Below the pieces are notes generated by a model, which did no database searches, was not told the DNA's origin, and saw only the letters and a program-made list of their open reading frames with translations. Source: Abditibacterium sp. (GTDB taxonomy: Bacteria > Armatimonadota > Abditibacteriia > Abditibacteriales > Abditibacteriaceae). From it: a stretch of DNA of 64,000 nt. The position numbers and the translations under genes are program-made. This document shows positions 12,806 to 27,599 of this stretch, in pieces; the first letter of the stretch is position 1; the number at the start of each line of letters is the position of its first letter. Location of the stretch: the NCBI GenBank assembly GCA_965199495.1, contig CBDASK010000003.1, forward strand, positions 3,424,001 through 3,488,000. Direction: 5' to 3'.

Positions 12806-13810
12806 TCATAAAGGTGTTTCAAACTTCAGTGGCCAATTTTCGTTTACCGAAATTTTGCCGCGCAACGTGAGTTTGTGGCGCGCTTTGAAAAGCGAATCCA
12901 GATGAACTGAGAGGCTGTTGACATCCTCGCCCTCAACAAGTTGTTTTTTGAGTTTCCTTTCGGCTGCCGACCAGCCAACATCCTCGAAATCAAAGTTGCC
13001 TTTGCGATTATATCGATGAATATTTCCTTTTTCGTCCACGATTTCCACATCGTAAATGCGCGAGGAAGATAGAGCGGATTTGAAATTATCATTCTTTTGG
13101 CGGCGATAAATGATGTGGACTTCTGCCTCTTCTCTCATCGCAATATCTCTTCGACTGGGGTCGTTCAAATTTACGAAAGGATCGACCACAACTTTGATTA
13201 TCTGCCCACCCGTCGTGCGATCATTGGATGAAGGCATTGTTTCGCCTGCTTTACGAATCTCGCGCTCGATTTTTAAAGGCGCAAGTCCCGCCAGACTGTA
13301 TAGTCCGCGAAATTTAACTGCTCCTGCCTCTGAGGGCACGCTATTAAGCCGCACGAAGCTAACGAAGACGTAGTTTCCATCTTCGTCAACAGAATACTTT
13401 GTCGTTCGTTCTTCACCGACTTTGGTTTGTCTAACCGCAATCCCGTTGCGTGTCGTCGTTAGAACTCCGCCCGTCCATGCCGTTTGTTTTCTTCTGCCAA
13501 GCGGCAATGATGCTATCGAAGATAGCAATGCTTCTGGGTGCAACGGGTCTGCTGGGCCGTTGCCGTTGCAACAATCGTTCGTCCATTCTGGCCGAGGCCA
13601 ACCCGGAGAAATTGTTACTGTCACTTGATGGCTGAAACCTCGTTCCTGCCAATACCCCGGCGCCGATTCGGCTTTGAAATCCGAAACATACATCGAACGC
13701 GGTTGAGGCTTAGGTCGTGCTTCTCGCCCCTGCCACCAAAACGCCAGCGCGCCGATGAGTAAAAATGGCGCGAACAGCCACAGTTCGCGCGCTTTGAATC
13801 GTTGTCGCAT
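12806..13810 (-). CDS. lineage-specific membrane-anchored paralog, copy 1 (RFKARELWLFAPF family)
   Basis: 334 aa; shared N-terminal anchor and C-terminal GKIS...WPL.F motif. Confidence 0.85.
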   Translation of the reverse strand: MRQRFKARELWLFAPFLLIGALAFWWQGREARPKPQPRSMYVSDFKAESAPGYWQERGFSHQVTVTISPGWPRPEWTNDCCNGNGPADPLHPEALLSSIASLPLGRRKQTAWTGGVLTTTRNGIAVRQTKVGEERTTKYSVDEDGNYVFVSFVRLNSVPSEAGAVKFRGLYSLAGLAPLKIEREIRKAGETMPSSNDRTTGGQIIKVVVDPFVNLNDPSRRDIAMREEAEVHIIYRRQKNDNFKSALSSSRIYDVEIVDEKGNIHRYNRKGNFDFEDVGWSAAERKLKKQLVEGEDVNSLSVHLDSLFKARHKLTLRGKISVNENWPLKFETPL

Positions 13811-13814
13811 TTCT

Positions 13815-13836
13815 TTAGTTTACATTTGCATCGAAG
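13815..13836. repeat. 22-bp direct repeat, left copy (matches 16698-16719)
   Basis: ttagtttacatttgcatcgaag. Confidence 0.9.
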
Positions 13837-13912
13837 ACAAACATCGCTAATCGTGCGACGATAAATTCCAAATTATTTTATATTTGAGCCGAATTTGACA
13901 TATATTTGGCGT

Positions 13913-14286
13913 GTGAATCCTGAAGAGAAACCACTGGATCGATTTAAGGGCGTGCAAATCACCACTCCACCGATGGGGGCGGTTGCGCGGCGTGAGGCCG
14001 GTTTTTTGCTGGGGCGCATTGCTGGGGCGCATTGCTGGGGCGCATTCAGGATGGCGAAGTTTTGGGAATGCCGCACGCGCGACCATTGTCAAACATCGCC
14101 GCTGGTCTCTACGAATTGCGTATTCGCGAGGCCGATAAAAACTGGCGCATCTTCTATCGCGTTGATGATGACCGTATTCTGCTGATTCACCAGATCAATA
14201 AAACGACGCAAACTTTGCCCGACAAAGACAAAGCGTTAATTCGTCAACGTCTCGCTGCTTACGATGCAGCCAAAGCCGAGGAGTAA
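13913..14286 (+). pseudogene. RelE/ParE-family (Gp49/DUF891-like) toxin, frameshifted by a tandem 13-bp repeat
   Basis: N-half ITTPPMGAVARREAGFLLGRI and C-half QDGEVLGMPHARPL...LYELRI...WRIFY lie in different frames, joined at (TTGCTGGGGCGCA)x3. Confidence 0.85.
14006..14046. repeat. tandem repeat, 13 bp x3
   Basis: TTGCTGGGGCGCA at 14006, 14019 and 14032. Confidence 0.97.
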
Positions 14287-14292
14287 ACCAAA

Positions 14293-14586
14293 ATGAAAAC
14301 CGAAGATTTGGGCCGCGAAGTCACGCGCGCCGAACTGTTGGGACTCACGCCCGAAGACGAAGCCATCGTTAATATCCGCTTGGCGCTGCACCGCAAACTC
14401 AAAGAAGCGCGCGCGCGCAGTGGCTTGAGTCAGGCGGCGCTGGCGCAGCGCATCGGGTCGAGCCAATCGCGCATCGCCAAAGCCGAAGCGGGTTCGCGCG
14501 AAATTTCGCTCGATTTAATCTTGCGCGCCGCCATCGCGAGTGGAGCCACGGCGCGCGAAATTGGCGAAGCGATCCAGGCGATGTAA
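14293..14586 (+). CDS. XRE-family HTH antitoxin
   Basis: GLSQAALAQRIGSSQSRIAKAEAG...SLDL; directly after the RelE-like toxin. Confidence 0.9.
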   Translation: MKTEDLGREVTRAELLGLTPEDEAIVNIRLALHRKLKEARARSGLSQAALAQRIGSSQSRIAKAEAGSREISLDLILRAAIASGATAREIGEAIQAM

Positions 14587-14601
14587 CTTGAAAGCGCAAA
14601 G

Positions 14602-15600
14602 CTACTTCGCGGGCGCCGTGGCTGCTGGTCGCGGCGGCAGTTTTATCTCGAATGGAATCGGCCATCTGTCGCCTAAATATACGTTGCCTTTGACAGTGAT
14701 GCGGCCTTTGGTTTTATCTTGCGCGTCTATGGACAAATTGAAAACTTTGCCGATCTGACCGGGCTTCAACGAGATTTTTGGCTCTTCCGGAAAGCCTGTT
14801 CCGTAAGTTGTATAGCCAGAAACTCCAGTCGTTTCGTCATTCATGTCGGTGATTGTGCAATTTAATTCGGGCTTTTTTGTCTTGGATGCCAGCGGCAGAA
14901 TCGGTTCGACAATGATTTTAATCGCGGTTAGATCAGAGGTTTTCGATAAGTTGCTGACTGCGCCCATCGGGTTGTTTTTCCATGGCGTTGCTTCAATCGA
15001 GACCAACTTAACGCCCGGATTTTTATCTACTGGCGGAAACTTCTCGCCCGCCGCGCGCACCACTTTTTGTGCCCTGACTAAATCGCCATTCTTAAACTGG
15101 TAAAGCCCCCGGAAAGTGACTTTGCCCAACTTCGGCGACACCCCGCGCAGATTGAAAGGATGCTTGATTTTATAGTTTTGTCCATCAAATTGAACAATTC
15201 TTGGATAGCCCGTGGAAATAGCATCCACGAACACCGTTTTGTCCGGTCGAAGAGCTGTTATAATTCCGCCCGCCGCCCATTTGATGTTGGTTTTGGGCGT
15301 ATAATAAACAGTTGGCGGCCTTTTCTCATTCATCGGATCGAGCGAAAGTGGCGTTTCGTCTATTTCGCCCCACCAACGCGGCTTAGGCCACGAATGCGAG
15401 AGCGTTACCGTAACATAATGGCTCACATCCATCGCTTCATCGCGCCCCGTTGCGGGCGTGCGCTCGATTTTCGACACATACATCCCGCGTTTTTCCGGTG
15501 GATTGACTTGTTCCCAACGCCGGTAAAATAAGGCCGCCACGCCGATGAGTAAAAATGGCGCGAACAGCCACAGTTCGCGCGCTTTGAATCGTTGTCGCAT
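14602..15600 (-). CDS. lineage-specific membrane-anchored paralog, copy 2
   Basis: First 60 nt identical to copy 1; WPKPRW, FRGLY and RWPIPFEIKLP motifs. Confidence 0.85.
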   Translation of the reverse strand: MRQRFKARELWLFAPFLLIGVAALFYRRWEQVNPPEKRGMYVSKIERTPATGRDEAMDVSHYVTVTLSHSWPKPRWWGEIDETPLSLDPMNEKRPPTVYYTPKTNIKWAAGGIITALRPDKTVFVDAISTGYPRIVQFDGQNYKIKHPFNLRGVSPKLGKVTFRGLYQFKNGDLVRAQKVVRAAGEKFPPVDKNPGVKLVSIEATPWKNNPMGAVSNLSKTSDLTAIKIIVEPILPLASKTKKPELNCTITDMNDETTGVSGYTTYGTGFPEEPKISLKPGQIGKVFNLSIDAQDKTKGRITVKGNVYLGDRWPIPFEIKLPPRPAATAPAK

Positions 15601-15615
15601 AAAATAGAGTTTCGC

Positions 15616-16692
15616 TTATGGCGTTTCGATTGGCTTGCCATCGCGCCAGAGCGGAATGGGAAAATCGTCGGCTTTGCCAACGTAGGTATCAGCGCCGCCG
15701 CGAGGTGGCAATTCGACCTTGAATTGTAAGGGCCAGCGTTGATCGAGCGAGATTTTCCCGCTCATGGTCAGGCGCCCCGTTGTTTTAATGCGCTGATCTA
15801 TCATCAATACCGTCCCTTGCACTCGCTCATTGTGCGCACGATTGGCGTTTGCCGAAGTCTCGCCGCTACTCGTGCCTTGAGAAAAACCTGTGGTCGAGTA
15901 AGGGCTGATTATCACGCCCTTTTCGTCTTTCAACTCGATGTCATAAACCGGAAATCCACCGAAATTTGATTGCGAAGCAGTCGCTTGCAAATCTCGAACG
16001 CGGAAGTTCAAACGGCAATCATCCTCTTTGCTGGTTTTGCCGCGCACCGTGGCACCATTGAAAACTTGAAATGGTTTCGCATCAATTGCGAGCAGTTGCG
16101 CGCCCGGATTTTTGTCCGTCGCCATCGGCAAAGTTTCGCCCGCCTTGCGCACGGCTCGCTCAAGGGCAATCTGCGGTTGTCCGACAATGCGATACAAACC
16201 GTGAAACGTGATCGCGCCCGCTTTAGCCGGAATTTCGCTGAGCTTAATATAGTGAGAAAAGCGATAGGTGTCGTTTTCAAACGTTCCTGAAGTTGTCAGA
16301 ATCGCGTCTTTGTCGGGCCATCGAATATTTCTGCCATCCTGCACGAAGGTAATCGCTCCACCCGGCGAAAGATATTGATTGAGTGTCGTGCCGCCAATCA
16401 GGCTTTCGGGTCTTTCCGGATGAAGCGGATCACACCGGCTACTAATATTTCCCGTTTGCCCCCACCATTTTGGGCGCGGCCACGGATGCGAAACACTCAC
16501 TTCGACTTGATGGCTGTAACCTTTTTCCCGCCAATATCCCGGCGCCGCCTCGACTTTGAAATCTGAAACAAGCATTCCGCCTGCGCCCGGTCTGGAAACT
16601 TGTTCGACGCGCGCCCAGTAAATTGCGCCCGCGATAATTAGTAAAAACGGCGCGAACAGCCACAGTTCGCGCGCTTTGAATTTGAGTTTCAT
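15616..16692 (-). CDS. lineage-specific membrane-anchored paralog, copy 3
   Basis: KFKARELWLFAPFLLI, WPRPKW, FHGLY, GKISLDQRWPLQFKVELP. Confidence 0.85.
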   Translation of the reverse strand: MKLKFKARELWLFAPFLLIIAGAIYWARVEQVSRPGAGGMLVSDFKVEAAPGYWREKGYSHQVEVSVSHPWPRPKWWGQTGNISSRCDPLHPERPESLIGGTTLNQYLSPGGAITFVQDGRNIRWPDKDAILTTSGTFENDTYRFSHYIKLSEIPAKAGAITFHGLYRIVGQPQIALERAVRKAGETLPMATDKNPGAQLLAIDAKPFQVFNGATVRGKTSKEDDCRLNFRVRDLQATASQSNFGGFPVYDIELKDEKGVIISPYSTTGFSQGTSSGETSANANRAHNERVQGTVLMIDQRIKTTGRLTMSGKISLDQRWPLQFKVELPPRGGADTYVGKADDFPIPLWRDGKPIETP

Positions 16693-22462: not shown

Positions 22463-23708
22463 TTATCTTTTTCGCAAAATCACGACGCGATTAGAATTGG
22501 TGCCACGCGCGCCGTTGGTCACGCCCCACAAATGCGCGGTTTTGGTAAATTCCTGCGCATTAACGACAATGCACTCGATTTCAAACCCGACAGTTGCGCC
22601 GATTTGAACGGCTTCGATTTCCAATCGCACTTTCTTTGCGGCGACTTCGCCGACTTCAAAACAGAGCGCGCCGCCCGGTTTTAAAACACGATGCCATTCG
22701 ACAAACGCGCGCTGCATCCAGGCGCGCCATTGATTTAAGTCGCGCGTTTGCCATAAATTTAGCGGCTCCAAATCGCGTCCACAAAACCACGCGCGCAACC
22801 AATTATCGAGTTTGTAATCCACGACATCCAGAAACGGCGGCGAGGTGACGATCAGATCAACCGATTCGTTTGATGCAGCCACATCGTCTGCCGCGCCCGT
22901 CCAAATGCGATGATTCAGGCCAAAATCACAAAAGTCGTCGCGCAACAATTGCCGCGATTTGCGCGCGATGAGTTTGCGCGTGTCGCGGTAAGTCGGAGTT
23001 TGCGCGCGCTTCTCGTTAATCTTTTGCTGCGATTGGAGCGCAACCGCTTGATTAGGCGGCATCGTGTAAACCGAGAAAAAGCCGGGCGAATGTCCAGTCA
23101 GACGATTGGCCGCCACCATTTCGAGCCACGCATCAACGTTGTCGAAATCGTCTGTTAAACGTCGCAAGTTGAAATAACGCCGCCACGCTTCGAGTTCTTG
23201 GAGAGTTTGGCGCTCGAAGAAAACCAGCAGTTCTTCGTTTTGCAGCGGCGCGATTGGCAATTCGATTTCGCGTAACCGTGCCTCGATTTGCGCCAACTTC
23301 GGTGGCCTCACGCGCGGCGTGGCTAATGTTTGCGCGACCGGATTCAAATCGCTGCCCAGCGCGCGACGTCCCAAAAGCGCCGCTTCAATCGGCGTCGTGC
23401 CGCGTCCCATTGAACGGATCGAAAACCGTGTCGCCGGGCATGGTTAGTCGTTCGATAAAAAAGCGCGGCACCTGCGGTTTAAAACACGCGCGATACGAAA
23501 CTTCGTGCAACAAATGGCACGCGCGCTGACGTGAAGTCCAAAACTCGTTGATGTAAACCGCGACTTGTCCGCCGTCGAACTCCCAATTTTCATATTGCGT
23601 CGGCGTGCCGAACTCGTTGAAGTCACGCAATTGTGCATGGAAATCGTCCCAACTCTGGCAAGTCTGAATTGGCGCGAGTTCGATATCAGGAAATAAGGAG
23701 GCTTGCAT
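22463..23708 (-). pseudogene. DNA methyltransferase (amino-MTase, SPPF motif IV), +1 frameshift in motif I
   Basis: Coding strand reads GAT CCG TTC A ATG GGA CGC near 23411, splitting DPF-MGRGTT; DLIVTSPPF and RVLKPGG follow. Confidence 0.85.
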
Positions 23709-23723
23709 GGGTCGAATCCCCAA

Positions 23724-24767
23724 CTACTCATCTTCAAAAGGCGATGAGTCCTCTATCATCTGGAATCTCAAGCGGCGAGGAGAATCCATTACTTCGTTAA
23801 TCTTCTCTTCAAATGGCAATCGTTTAGTTGCTTCTGTGGCCTTTGCACAATGGAACTCTTTGGTAAATCCGAGAATAATTTCATCTTCAGTTAAGGCAAG
23901 AGGCTGAGCGTCATGAAGATACGCCGCAGCCGCTACACCTATCTTTTTCCTAATCCTCATAATTACTGCTGGCCACAATTCTACCAAATCGTCAAAATTA
24001 TGGATCCTCCTGGGCTTGTGATGCAATTGAGCGGGATTATTTTCTGAGAACGGATCGGAATCAGAAGGTGAGGAATCTTCTGGTTTAGTAGTAGCGAATG
24101 GCGGACTCAAGACATTCGATTGCTTTGAGATCGGGGAGAAATCTCTGCTCGCTTTCGGTCGTCCTTGTGCTACTTCCACAACTTTACGAAGCGCTGAAAT
24201 CTCACCACCTTGAACGCGCAGAAGTTCTAACGCCTCCTGTAACATCTCGTCAGACGAGCGCGCTGGCGCTGGATTTTGAATTGGTAACTCAGTCGCCTCT
24301 TGTAATTTACTTTCCAATTCCGGCCAACAACGCTCGAAATTACGATTTAGTCGCTCATCCGAAAGTGGTTTCTCCTCATGGTTTGCGAGACATCCATTGA
24401 TGCTTTGAAGTAACTTGAAAACTTCGTCACGATCAACAGAAGTATGTTGAAACATAGCGAGAGGAAATTCTACTTCTGCGGGCTTTATATCCAACAGAAA
24501 AGTTTAAGTGTGGGCGACGCGCGCCTTTGCCAATGCTCCCGCTTCGAAATGCAGCCATTTGGAATCGAGATTATCTTGAGTTAAGCAAAGAATACCGATA
24601 GGCGCTTGTTCTAAGCCGGACATGATTTCATCTGCCCATCGTTTGCCCTTCTCAATTTCCGTAGACATCCAAGGCTCAACGGCTTGCACAACATCGCCTA
24701 ACCAATTGGTTAGAGCTTCTGCGACTCTCCTGCTTCGTGGCCCAGACCAAGAAATAAAAACTTGCAT
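23724..24767 (-). pseudogene. TIR-domain protein with in-frame TAA at 24504-24506 and a DnaX/tau-like C-terminal domain
   Basis: VFISWSG...WLHFEAGAL TIR motifs; reading CAC ACT TAA ACT TTT CTG TTG GAT keeps the frame into the 256 aa ORF. Confidence 0.85.
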
Positions 24768-24775
24768 AATAATTT

Positions 24776-24810
24776 GAAAGCGCCGCCCAAAAATTTTGGG
24801 CGGCGCTTTC
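24776..24810 (-). terminator. intrinsic terminator after aspS
   Basis: gaaagcgccgcccaaaa...ttttgggcggcgctttc. Confidence 0.75.
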
Positions 24811-24814
24811 GAGT

Positions 24815-26632
24815 TTACTCATCTTCCTCGCGCGGCAATTCCGCCAAGCCCATCTCCGCCCAACGCTCGACAGGAATATAAGTCGGCGCGCCCGTCAGAG
24901 GGTCTTGGCCACCGCTCGTTTTGGGAAACGGAATTACTTCGCGGATGTTGCCGTCGGCGATGCCTGCCAGCAAAGCCACGACGCGGTCGAAACCGGGCGC
25001 GATGCCGCCGTGTGGCGGCGCGCCGTATTCAAACGCATCGAGCATAAATCCGAAACGTTCCTGCGCGATTTCCATTGGCAAACCGATAACATCGAAGATT
25101 TGCTGCTGAATGTCGCGGCGATGGCAACGAATCGAACCGCTCGCCAACTCGAAACCGTTGAGAACTAAATCGTAAAGCCACGCGCGAATCAAAGCGTGCG
25201 GGTGCAGCGAGTCGCCTTTGGATAGGTTTGTGGTGAAACCCTCGGCGAGCAAATGCATATCTTCCGGGTTGGGCAGGCAAAACGGATGATGCGCGGCGTC
25301 GAAAGTGCCGGATGACGCGTCGTATTCAAACATCGGCGTATCCACGATCCACAGAAAATTGAATTTGTCGCGCGGAATCAAATCCAATCGCTGCGCCATT
25401 TCGCGGCGCAAAAAGTCGAGCGATTGCGCGACAACGCTCGGTTTATCGGCGACGACCAACACTAAATCGCCCGGCCCGGCGTTCATGCGCTCGAAAATGC
25501 CGTTCATCTGATCTTCGGTGAAAAACTTGGCGACGTTCGATTTAATTTCACTTTCGCCCTTAGCAAACGTGGCCAATCCGCGCGCACCGAAACGTTTGAC
25601 GAGTTCGGTCAATGCGTCCACTTCCTTGCGCGAATAAGCAGCCACGCCGGGCGCGCAGATCGCTTTGACCTGTCCGCCCGTGGCGAGGGCGTTGGTGAAA
25701 ACTTTGAATTGCGAATCGGCAACGATGTCGCTGATGTCGGTCAACTCCATGCCAAAACGCGTGTCGGGTTTATCGGTGCCAAAACGTCGCATCGATTCGG
25801 CGTAGGGCATCCGCTCGAACGGAAGCGAAATGTCGATGTTTTTCACCGATTTCATCAAATGCGCGAAGAGTTTCTCGGTGAGTTCGAGAATATCGTCTTG
25901 CACGACGAAACTCATCTCGATGTCGATCTGGGTGAATTCGGGTTGGCGGTCGGCGCGCGCGCTTTCGTCGCGGAAACAGCGCGCGATTTGGAAATACTTC
26001 TCGATGCCGCCAACCATCAACAACTGCTTGGCGATTTGTGGCGATTGCGGCAACACGAACGCTTTGCCGACCGGCTGGCGAACAGGCACGACATATTCGC
26101 GCGCGCCTTCGGGCGTGGATTTCCATAGCAATGGCGTCTCGACTTCCCAGAAACCTTCGGCGTCCAAGAAATTGCGCGTCTCGCGCGACAGGCGATAACG
26201 CATTTCCAAAATATCGCGCACCGGCGCGCGGCGCATATCGAGATAGCGATATTGCAAACGCACGTCTTCCGAAGCGCGCGTGTCGGGCGTCAATTCAAAC
26301 GGCAGCGGCTTGGATGTGTTGAGAATAATCACTTCGTCAACGCGCACTTCGATTTGGCCGGTGGGAAGTTTGGGATTCTCTTTGCCCGCGACGCGCGCCA
26401 CGACTTCGCCGGTGATTTGCAGACAAAACTCGGATTTGACTTGCGCCAGAACATCGTAGATTTCGGCGTTGATTTCGCGGTCGGCGACGATTTGCACCAA
26501 ACCGGAACGGTCGCGCAGGTCAATGAAGCATTGATACGATTGGTCGCGGACGGTGGAAGACCAACCGCAAAGAGTGACGGTTTGGCCGATATTTTCGGGG
26601 CGAAGTTCGCCGCAATGATGGGTGCGTTGCAT
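24815..26632 (-). CDS. aspS: aspartate--tRNA ligase
   Basis: RTHHCGEL, YRYLDMR, STPEGAR, LPQSPQ, CFRDE, RQPEFTQIDIE, GAPPHGG. Confidence 0.97.
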   Translation of the reverse strand: MQRTHHCGELRPENIGQTVTLCGWSSTVRDQSYQCFIDLRDRSGLVQIVADREINAEIYDVLAQVKSEFCLQITGEVVARVAGKENPKLPTGQIEVRVDEVIILNTSKPLPFELTPDTRASEDVRLQYRYLDMRRAPVRDILEMRYRLSRETRNFLDAEGFWEVETPLLWKSTPEGAREYVVPVRQPVGKAFVLPQSPQIAKQLLMVGGIEKYFQIARCFRDESARADRQPEFTQIDIEMSFVVQDDILELTEKLFAHLMKSVKNIDISLPFERMPYAESMRRFGTDKPDTRFGMELTDISDIVADSQFKVFTNALATGGQVKAICAPGVAAYSRKEVDALTELVKRFGARGLATFAKGESEIKSNVAKFFTEDQMNGIFERMNAGPGDLVLVVADKPSVVAQSLDFLRREMAQRLDLIPRDKFNFLWIVDTPMFEYDASSGTFDAAHHPFCLPNPEDMHLLAEGFTTNLSKGDSLHPHALIRAWLYDLVLNGFELASGSIRCHRRDIQQQIFDVIGLPMEIAQERFGFMLDAFEYGAPPHGGIAPGFDRVVALLAGIADGNIREVIPFPKTSGGQDPLTGAPTYIPVERWAEMGLAELPREEDE

Positions 26633-26687: not shown

Positions 26688-27599
26688 ATGAAACGATTTT
26701 CCGCGCGCGAGTTCGCGCTATTGTGCGTGCCGGTGGCTGTTGTTGCGGGCGCGGGTTGGTGGGCGGCGCGTCGCCCAAAGCCTGAACCTTATATCGCGCC
26801 GAAATTCTCGCTGAGTTATGAACCTCCGTCGTCGCTCAAAGCGTTCGAGGGCGCCAGAACTGTGATCGTCGCCAAATTGAGTAAGGATTCGCAGGGCAAT
26901 CCCTATATGTTAGACGGTTTGAAAAGTCCCAAATTTTGGCTCGATGTTACCACGCCGCAGGGCATTAAGAGTTGGCGCACCGATGGAACCGGCACTTTTC
27001 AAATCAAAGGTGCTTCTGCGATGAATGGCGCAAACCAGTGGTATTACATCTATCTGACTCAATTGCCCGCTGGCGATTTGACTTTTGGTGTCAGTGGAAC
27101 GGCTGTGAGTTCGTCTTTTCCAAGTTCAGCCCAACCGCATTGGATCAAACAGAAATTGCCCGTAGATAAAACCAAACTGCAAGAATTCGATTTCTCGTTG
27201 CCACGCGCGCCGCTTATCAAACTAAAATCCGCGACGATTTCACAAATCACCCGGCCAATCAGAGCGATCATTCAATTGACTTTCGTTTTGCAGGGCACAA
27301 AGAAAGCAGAAGAAATTGCTGTTCAAACAGATTTGAAAGAATCACATGGCTACGTCCTTTCCAGTTCGATGCAGTTGGATTCAAACGTGCCCCGAAGCCT
27401 CATCGTTGAACCAGATGTTGCTGATGCCAACGGTTTGACCGAGAAAATTGAATTGACCGGACGCATCAGCGCCGATAATCGTTGGCCGCTCGCTTTTAAA
27501 ATCGAGCCGTTCGATTTCAAAAACATTAAAGTTGGTCAAAAACTCAAATTCAAATCGTGGCCCGCGCCGCTTCCATCTGGCGTTGTGTTGAAGAAGTAA
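26688..27599 (+). CDS. lineage-specific membrane-anchored protein, distant member of the RFxARE family
   Basis: MKRFSAREFALL... anchor and GRISADNRWPLAFKI C-terminal motif. Confidence 0.8.
   Translation: MKRFSAREFALLCVPVAVVAGAGWWAARRPKPEPYIAPKFSLSYEPPSSLKAFEGARTVIVAKLSKDSQGNPYMLDGLKSPKFWLDVTTPQGIKSWRTDGTGTFQIKGASAMNGANQWYYIYLTQLPAGDLTFGVSGTAVSSSFPSSAQPHWIKQKLPVDKTKLQEFDFSLPRAPLIKLKSATISQITRPIRAIIQLTFVLQGTKKAEEIAVQTDLKESHGYVLSSSMQLDSNVPRSLIVEPDVADANGLTEKIELTGRISADNRWPLAFKIEPFDFKNIKVGQKLKFKSWPAPLPSGVVLKK

Follow-up and report, generated by a model that had tools for sequence, protein, structure and literature searches.

A TIR domain joined to a copy of the host tau subunit's C-terminal domain (TIR+DnaX_C) is a real, selected and recurrent fusion. 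The gene considered here lies in the window (the whole stretch of 64,000 nucleotides that was analysed); it is a pseudogene of such a TIR+DnaX_C fusion and no intact TIR can be made from it. We view the fusion as a variant of TIR-based defence that allows a testable integrated-decoy reading, in which our confidence is a little short of even.

The interrupted gene, its TIR family and its locus

The gene can be divided as follows, each feature being given with its basis.

23724-24767 (-): TIR+DnaX_C pseudogene (translation and Pfam)
24507..24767 (-): N-terminal half of the TIR, residues 1-87, FxSWS and FEAGA motifs kept (Pfam TIR_2, E 3.5e-9; column conservation)
24543..24545 (-): codon of Glu75, the catalytic-position glutamate (alignment; putative role)
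24504..24506 (-): in-frame TAA, codon 88, inside the TIR domain (translation; identical in the run X1 contig)
24210..24503 (-): remainder of the TIR and the conserved helical extension of the family, residues 89-186 (PADLOC TIR-TM, PHROG 13899)
24018..24209 (-): Ser/Pro-rich variable linker, residues 187-250 (sequence; unalignable among the fusions)
23757..24017 (-): globular (KH-like) C-terminal domain copied from DnaX/tau, residues 251-337 (Pfam DnaX_C, identity to own DnaX, model)
23724..23756 (-): acidic end, 10 residues and stop, without the DnaX terminal tail motif (sequence, tail profile)

The motifs listed in an earlier note on this DNA (VFISWSG, SKWLHFEAGAL, LWPAVIMRIRKKIG... and SSPFEDE) are all present in the translation of 23724-24767(-). 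The N-terminal TIR domain described there was recovered by Pfam (TIR_2, residues 3-80), and the glutamate said to occupy the catalytic position is E75, found in 102 of 102 aligned TIR rows, a position that suggests a catalytic role; the Pfam match and this residue together support the TIR_2 assignment. The gene is indeed AT-rich, with a GC of 0.456 and a GC3 of 0.40 against medians of 0.569 and 0.66, and its GC3 falls within the lowest 0.4% of the long ORFs of the genome (n=2628).

Exactly one in-frame TAA interrupts the TIR+DnaX_C frame, at a codon that specifies C (86), W (10), S (2), G (2) or F (1) among homologues, and a complete TIR fold in one frame is absent from the window gene and present in eight homologues. 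A contig of 1541 bases (depth 44) from the public run X1, which may be the source sample of the genome itself, covers 23482-25022 with 0 differences, stop included. As the stop is found in this separate assembly, an assembly slip is excluded, and a strain-specific lesion is still allowed. The window TIR is off consensus at 11 of 76 conserved columns, the median being 4. A programmed split at the stop was considered and rejected: the broken TIR of another genome (G021) begins nearby, but it has no recognisable N-half in any frame, so that a recurring split is without support.

When the stop was read as X, the PADLOC TIR-TM model (PDLC03016) matched residues 1-186 with an E-value of 4.9e-56 and PHROG 13899 matched residues 1-194; the extension is seen as helices in the model of an intact homologue. 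The kinship to phage defence that had been claimed for the TIR holds in that the family has a validated member, P2 AC1 (38% identity over 201 columns), and the TIR-TM model was built, to judge by its name, from the AC1 system. According to the passages of Rousset et al. 2022 (PMC9122126) on this system, the AC1 locus of three genes gives protection from lambda, LF82_P8 and P2, and its TIR "may generate a nucleotide messenger". A relative occurs in phage mEp390 as a lone gene flanked by Q and holin. The family as a whole has a constant core of TIR and helices and a highly variable C-terminal part, which is the site of the tau copy. AC1 shares the TIR and helical extension, but its C-terminal part is unrelated to the tau domain of the window protein, and it comes with two genes for transmembrane partners. 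No transmembrane effector gene is adjacent to the window gene or to the intact fusion of genome G020, and the one of the two AC1 partners that was searched for has no match in this genome; the TIR would therefore act alone as an NADase or signal to a distant effector. Thoeris ThsB and SPARTA TIR-APAZ have the TIR fold in common with it, the nearest solved folds being those of SPARTA and plant TIRs, but identity to solved TIRs is below 20% and there is no ThsA-type effector or Argonaute gene near the window TIR. Another C-terminal swap was observed in P0030 and P0044, proteins of the same TIR family that end in CxxC-x17-CxxC zinc fingers (PF23477). Two more TIR_2 genes are present in the genome, one joining a coiled coil to TIR (G000:C3:1140383-1141258) and the other joining pentapeptide-like repeats to TIR (449221-450354).

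The gene sits, as the earlier note had it, between the terminator of aspS and a DNA methyltransferase.

24815..26632 (-): aspS, aspartyl-tRNA synthetase, upstream flank (named from sequence and the earlier note, not from a family scan)
24776..24810 (-): 16-pair hairpin behind aspS, with a weak U-tract, 9 bases ahead of the TIR ATG
22463..23708 (-): type II DNA methyltransferase, downstream flank, frameshifted near 23406-23412 (PADLOC MTase_II on both pieces)

A sigma-70-like promoter for the TIR gene was looked for and none was found. Orthologues of aspS are 83-94% identical in five of five relatives. The methyltransferase, which the TIR gene overlaps or abuts, reads in two frames against the intact gene of a relative (G004), one base at 23411/23412 being absent in the relatives. 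Contigs of runs X1 (depth 2.9) and X2 run from the side of aspS to that of the methyltransferase and lack the TIR gene, with unknown letters between the two. The same slot is filled in G004 by another gene, of 184 aa (L088:918-1472), which has no Pfam or PADLOC match and for which a role as nuclease partner of the methyltransferase would be a guess, and a methyltransferase after aspS was not seen in the other four relatives checked (one contig stops there). The slot between aspS and the methyltransferase is variable. The defence-island context envisaged in the earlier note was not found: among 30 window proteins, PADLOC scores were confined to the two parts of the methyltransferase, a Uma2 protein at 7.2 kb (16 kb away) and RecG, the last through Cas3-like cross-hits. 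Since the contents of the slot differ among relatives and the PADLOC scan is near-empty, the gene is a lone insertion and not part of a defence island. No effector, cyclase or Argonaute of Thoeris, CBASS, Pycsar or SPARTA was matched by PADLOC in these 30 proteins and two neighbours of the G020 fusion. The latter is the sole intact fusion whose surroundings could be read; it is flanked by tmRNA and a chorismate-binding enzyme, with no defence island there. It lies (L033:9034-10581) directly behind the tmRNA gene and a hairpin, in parallel to the window gene behind aspS, and transcription of both genes may come from read-through at the terminator of a housekeeping gene.

Identity, selection and history of the tau-domain copy

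Concerning the C-terminal part, the earlier note had proposed either the C-terminal domain of DnaX or domain I of DnaA. The first proposal stands: over 87 aa the domain is 77% identical to the DnaX of the same genome (E 2e-42), and Pfam DnaX_C (PF20964) matches within the last 100 residues (E 1.2e-6, 28.9 bits against a cut-off of 26.2). The second does not, and DnaA domain I and DciA were rejected as sources because they have the same fold yet only 15-16% identity. The model of the tau domain is confident (pLDDT 94) and its fold matches are DnaA domain I (Z 9.9, rmsd 2.6, 81 aligned), DciA (Z 6.4) and E. coli tau domain V, residues 520-592 (Z 6.1, rmsd 2.7, 72 aligned), with a weak match to residues 12-66 of T. 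aquaticus tau-c (E 0.26). The corresponding domain of the host lies at G000:C3:4711198-4711458, within the true, intein-bearing dnaX (G000:C3:4708432-4711599). Whatever the likeness in sequence and predicted fold, the window copy lacks the AAA+ ATPase (clamp-loader) module, domain III and the terminal polymerase-binding tail, and is therefore not a DnaX gene; it is, moreover, synonymously recoded and joined to an enzyme. Most DnaX-invariant residues are kept in it, and several other copies have diverged so far that they are 37-46% identical to any DnaX compared.

In E. coli tau, according to the sections of PMC4703070 on these contacts, the globular domain touches the polymerase fingers and the terminal tail provides the contact with the polymerase tail. 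Using a profile of 44 DnaX tails of the family, which is blind to tails of other phyla, the tail motif was found in a single one of 23 family-type copies (P0140) and is missing from the other 22. In all nine TIR fusions, the last strand is followed by no more than about 15 residues. By eye, both repeats of a Paenibacillus protein (P0160) retain a tail. The captured unit is exact, namely the globular domain alone without the terminal tail.

At the DNA level the window copy is 65% identical to its own dnaX and 52 of the 67 codons for identical residues differ (pS 1.07, dN 0.18); the DnaX orthologues of G000 and G001, taken for comparison, have a dN of 0.21 and a pS of 0.63. The synonymous difference is above that of a rough independence model (of 64, 43 were expected to differ and 52 did, with a P of about 0.006), and the G020 copy gives 40 against 37 of 56 (P 0.25). 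Saturated synonymous sites together with a dN of 0.18 indicate that the protein has been held by selection. To judge from these sequences, the copy would either be old at the DNA level and selected to stay near the host protein, or have been recoded fast in an AT-biased setting under selection.

In the careful tree, built from 64 domains, the window copy falls inside the clade of its own DnaX (87/92), the DnaX of G020 has the G020 fusion and P0003 as sisters (87/86) and two lone copies of genome G013 group with the DnaX of G013 (89/86), none of the three placements being starred; in a quick tree of 78 rows, the window and G020/P0003 placements persist and that of G013 does not. AU tests rejected a single clade of three TIR-fused domains (p 0.0115), of five (p 0.0261) and of 14 copies (p 0.0036), on quick trees of 87 columns with five outgroup and ten long-branch rows dropped and with groups named after the first tree. 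One clade of the nine TIR halves is compatible with the data (p-AU 0.39, with 57 of 102 rows used, and 0.65). The domain may thus have been captured several times, or one old fusion may have had its tail replaced or reshaped in each lineage; under either history, selection favoured a domain of the host type. Ranked by identity, own DnaX comes first for three of the five copies whose host is known (the window copy, G013 solo A and G049) and not for the G020 fusion (66% to its own, 70% to another) or G013 solo B (60% and 63%). The window domain is host-derived and host-like, as seen in its 77% identity, its place in the own-DnaX clade and its low dN.

Intact fusions and other carriers of the domain

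Intact TIR+DnaX_C fusions, the existence of which the earlier note had left to be checked, were found as eight uninterrupted proteins: P0002 (from G020), P0003, P0005, P0006, P0025, P0139, P0148 and P0157. The TIR parts of the fusions are only 34-81% alike. Among the 27 genomes of the family, the domain was found in 25 and extra copies in three, which are the genome of the window, G020 with its uninterrupted 371-aa TIR fusion (in a single-contig genome of 3.8 Mb) and G013 with two lone genes of 98 aa. The best 120 of 405 protein matches to the G020 protein include five with the domain (P0002, P0003, P0005, P0006 and P0025). A profile search of cluster representatives gave 83 matches, 28 of which were examined and 27 scanned with Pfam. 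Those 28 added the TIR fusions P0139, P0148 and P0157 and, by eye alone, three nuclease-like partners (P0135, P0138 and P0140). Most carriers are single metagenome proteins, known from their protein sequence alone.

Further partners are a Ser/Thr kinase (kinase-WD40), a beta-helix (P0137) and DnaJ (P0150), together with one N-terminal fusion and four lone copies. Weaker matches are a DUF1822 protein (P0204) and the Paenibacillus PLD protein P0160 with its two DnaX_C repeats, which are divergent versions of the domain, the PLD nuclease being matched by PADLOC MkoB (5.7e-24) and DrmC. Two repeats, likewise divergent, are also found in Streptomyces caspases of the EACC1 type (P0173, P0207 and P0209), with an NCBIfam match over the cut-off. 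The carriers span at least three phyla, and nine of 16 family-type fusions join the domain to one TIR family.

Seven lone copies of 94-101 aa were counted (two in G013, then L045, P0141, P0142, P0151 and P0153). Lone tau-domain genes of 98-101 aa were located at L036:810-1106, L037:5326-5622 and L045:905-1207; against the dnaX of G013, these have a pS of 0.74-0.86 and a dN of 0.16-0.32. In G049, of another family of the same phylum, a protein of 585 aa ends in a copy for which its own DnaX is the best of 129 sequences (36%, E 2e-13, the next match having an E-value of 1e-4).

A scan of the phylum with PF20964 matched 168 of 251 genomes, eight of them more than once; as it missed the window's own copy, it is an undercount. 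Besides G013 and G020, the extras correspond to DnaA (G017, G037 and G049), a weak unrelated match (G185), one further fusion (G049, L102) and a separate 235-aa family (G092 and G211). In these two genomes a conserved 212-aa protein (L101:1129-1833 and L100:1114-1818), separate from dnaX and dnaA, begins with a DnaX_C-like domain and has a C-terminal part made of helices. In metagenome contigs, 25 loci were 22 DnaX or DnaX fragments and three lone copies, with no fusion among them. A search with the domain region gave ten protein matches, all DnaX pieces besides the window protein and P0025, and the protein-cluster atlas contained TIR_2 clusters under 0.9 and DnaX-type clusters with no fusion cluster. 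Viral contigs searched with the domain alignment, P0138 and P0140 yielded no relative, and in phage and plasmid records the lone copy P0171 used as query gave none, and one dnaX; both searches reach close relatives only.

Candidate roles of the fusion

Domain identity, fold, purifying selection, unrelated partners, tail loss and TIR kinship all argue for a bait, a reading that we hold to be plausible at somewhat under an even chance. The occurrence of intact versions, and of the same domain on other partners, is suggestive of a bait built into the protein and meant for viral proteins by which replication is attacked or hijacked. With every binding and activation step taken as putative, the ancestral protein may have been an integrated decoy or sensor for phage replication proteins docking on tau, for which our confidence comes near to even without reaching it. 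It would be a one-piece immune sensor composed of a TIR of the P2-AC1/TIR-TM family and a tail-less host tau globular domain, the latter being bound by a protein of a phage or plasmid for which docking on host tau is a necessity. Candidate ligands would be a DnaB-type helicase borrowing the host Pol III holoenzyme, or a tau inhibitor. Clustering by an oligomeric ligand is general TIR behaviour; ligand binding would cluster the TIR domains, which would then switch on NAD+ cleavage or signal synthesis, by which the infection would be ended. Phages relying on the elongation machinery of their host dock on tau; at the level of the subunit, the SPP1 helicase G40P binds B. subtilis tau (a statement of PMC5737612 that cites an earlier paper).

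More generally, and with slightly less assurance, these comparisons would be compatible with bacteria repeatedly copying the tau C-terminal domain, stripping its tail and bolting it onto TIR, nuclease, caspase or kinase effectors as a phage bait similar to plant NLR-IDs, lone copies being free decoys. The PLD nuclease, the EACC1-type caspase and the Ser/Thr kinase are partner types typical of conflict systems. Against a bait stand the lack of a defence island and of an adjacent effector, the imperfect host matching, the seven lone copies without effector, the beta-helix and DnaJ partners, which are not plainly immune, the tail kept by the nuclease-like P0140 and, by eye, by the Paenibacillus repeats, and the compatibility of the TIR halves with one origin (p-AU 0.39 and 0.65).

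Plant NLRs with integrated decoys, such as RRS1-WRKY and Pik-HMA, are likewise immune receptors carrying a copy of a host protein domain, but the window protein has no NB-ARC/STAND, LRR or paired receptor and its bait role is putative. Reviews on plant NLRs describe integrated domains as mimics of host targets. The nearest bacterial precedent in the literature searched is the EACC1-protease fused to a lidless DnaK-like domain presented in the main text of PMC12642450, where a defence enzyme fused to a truncated housekeeping copy is read as a sensor; two caspases of the EACC1 type are also among the tau-domain carriers. DnaX has 0 occurrences in the main text of that paper and in the main texts of a TIR survey and of a conflict-system paper, the latter proposing, in its main text, decoy roles for inactive enzyme copies. 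No description of DnaX_C fusions was found in the literature searched, to which subscription journals are largely external, and supplementary domain lists may hold some. The candidate sensor of this TIR protein can be recognised as a domain copied from the replisome of the host. If the bait reading were true, the fusion would be a bacterial counterpart of plant integrated decoys; tau would be a target of phage proteins, and an unrecognised class of tau-targeting phage proteins would be predicted; and the pairing of an effector with a fragment of an essential host protein would offer a search rule for defence genes that is independent of defence islands.

It is conceivable, although somewhat unlikely, that the tau copy is a tether or guard that docks the TIR, nuclease or caspase on the host replisome via DnaB or the polymerase fingers, the enzyme firing on phage displacement or fork stalling and sensing the state of the host complex, not a phage protein. 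A host-like sequence under purifying selection suits a host partner equally well, the copy retains most DnaX-invariant residues, it shares its fold with DnaA domain I, DciA and tau domain V, and the globular domain of E. coli tau contacts the polymerase fingers (PMC4703070, in the same sections). Nevertheless, 22 of 23 copies have lost the terminal tail, through which the polymerase tail is contacted in E. coli, and the several copies at 37-46% identity to any DnaX are more like a diversifying bait than a fixed dock.

We consider it unlikely that the domain is a general docking or competitor module without phage sensing, through which mobile or accessory genes would reach or slow the replisome, lone copies acting as dominant-negative brakes and fusions as delivery, with TIR one use among many. 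The lone copies of 94-101 aa, the non-immune-looking beta-helix (P0137) and DnaJ (P0150) partners and the lack of a defence island around copies with readable context would fit such a module, but nine of 16 family-type fusions are on one TIR family with a validated defence member, the carriers outside the phylum are a PLD nuclease and EACC1-type caspases, and neither viral contigs nor phage records contained a copy in searches that reach close relatives only.

Neutral shuffling, by which part of dnaX would have landed behind a TIR gene and now be in decay, is very improbable. The window gene with its stop, no promoter found, no partner and a frameshifted neighbour could be so explained, as could the departure of its TIR at 11 of 76 conserved columns (median 4) and the extra copies in only three of 27 family genomes. 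Nevertheless, synonymous sites are saturated yet protein identity is 77%, eight fusions are uninterrupted and the same domain boundaries recur on unrelated partners; for the family, a dN far below dS largely refutes it. An assembly chimera of a TIR gene with dnaX, to which homologues that are mostly single-contig metagenome proteins might point, has a negligible probability in general and is ruled out for the window, since with a DNA identity of only 65% to the own dnaX reads could not be confused and an X1 contig spans the gene with 0 differences; the G020 fusion, too, lies within a single-contig genome of 3.8 Mb.

Some minor observations were made in passing. Both dnaX (G000:C3:4708432-4711599) and dnaE (3579549-3584525) carry intein-like insertions, in frames of 1055 and 1659 aa, and dnaB frames of 900-1390 aa are split by an insertion in many relatives, which is absent in this genome. 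Four paralogues of about 300-360 aa with a "KRFxARExxLxxxP"-like start, a lower GC3 and no Pfam match are located at 12809-16692 and 26688-27599 of the window, and relatives also carry one such paralogue before aspS.
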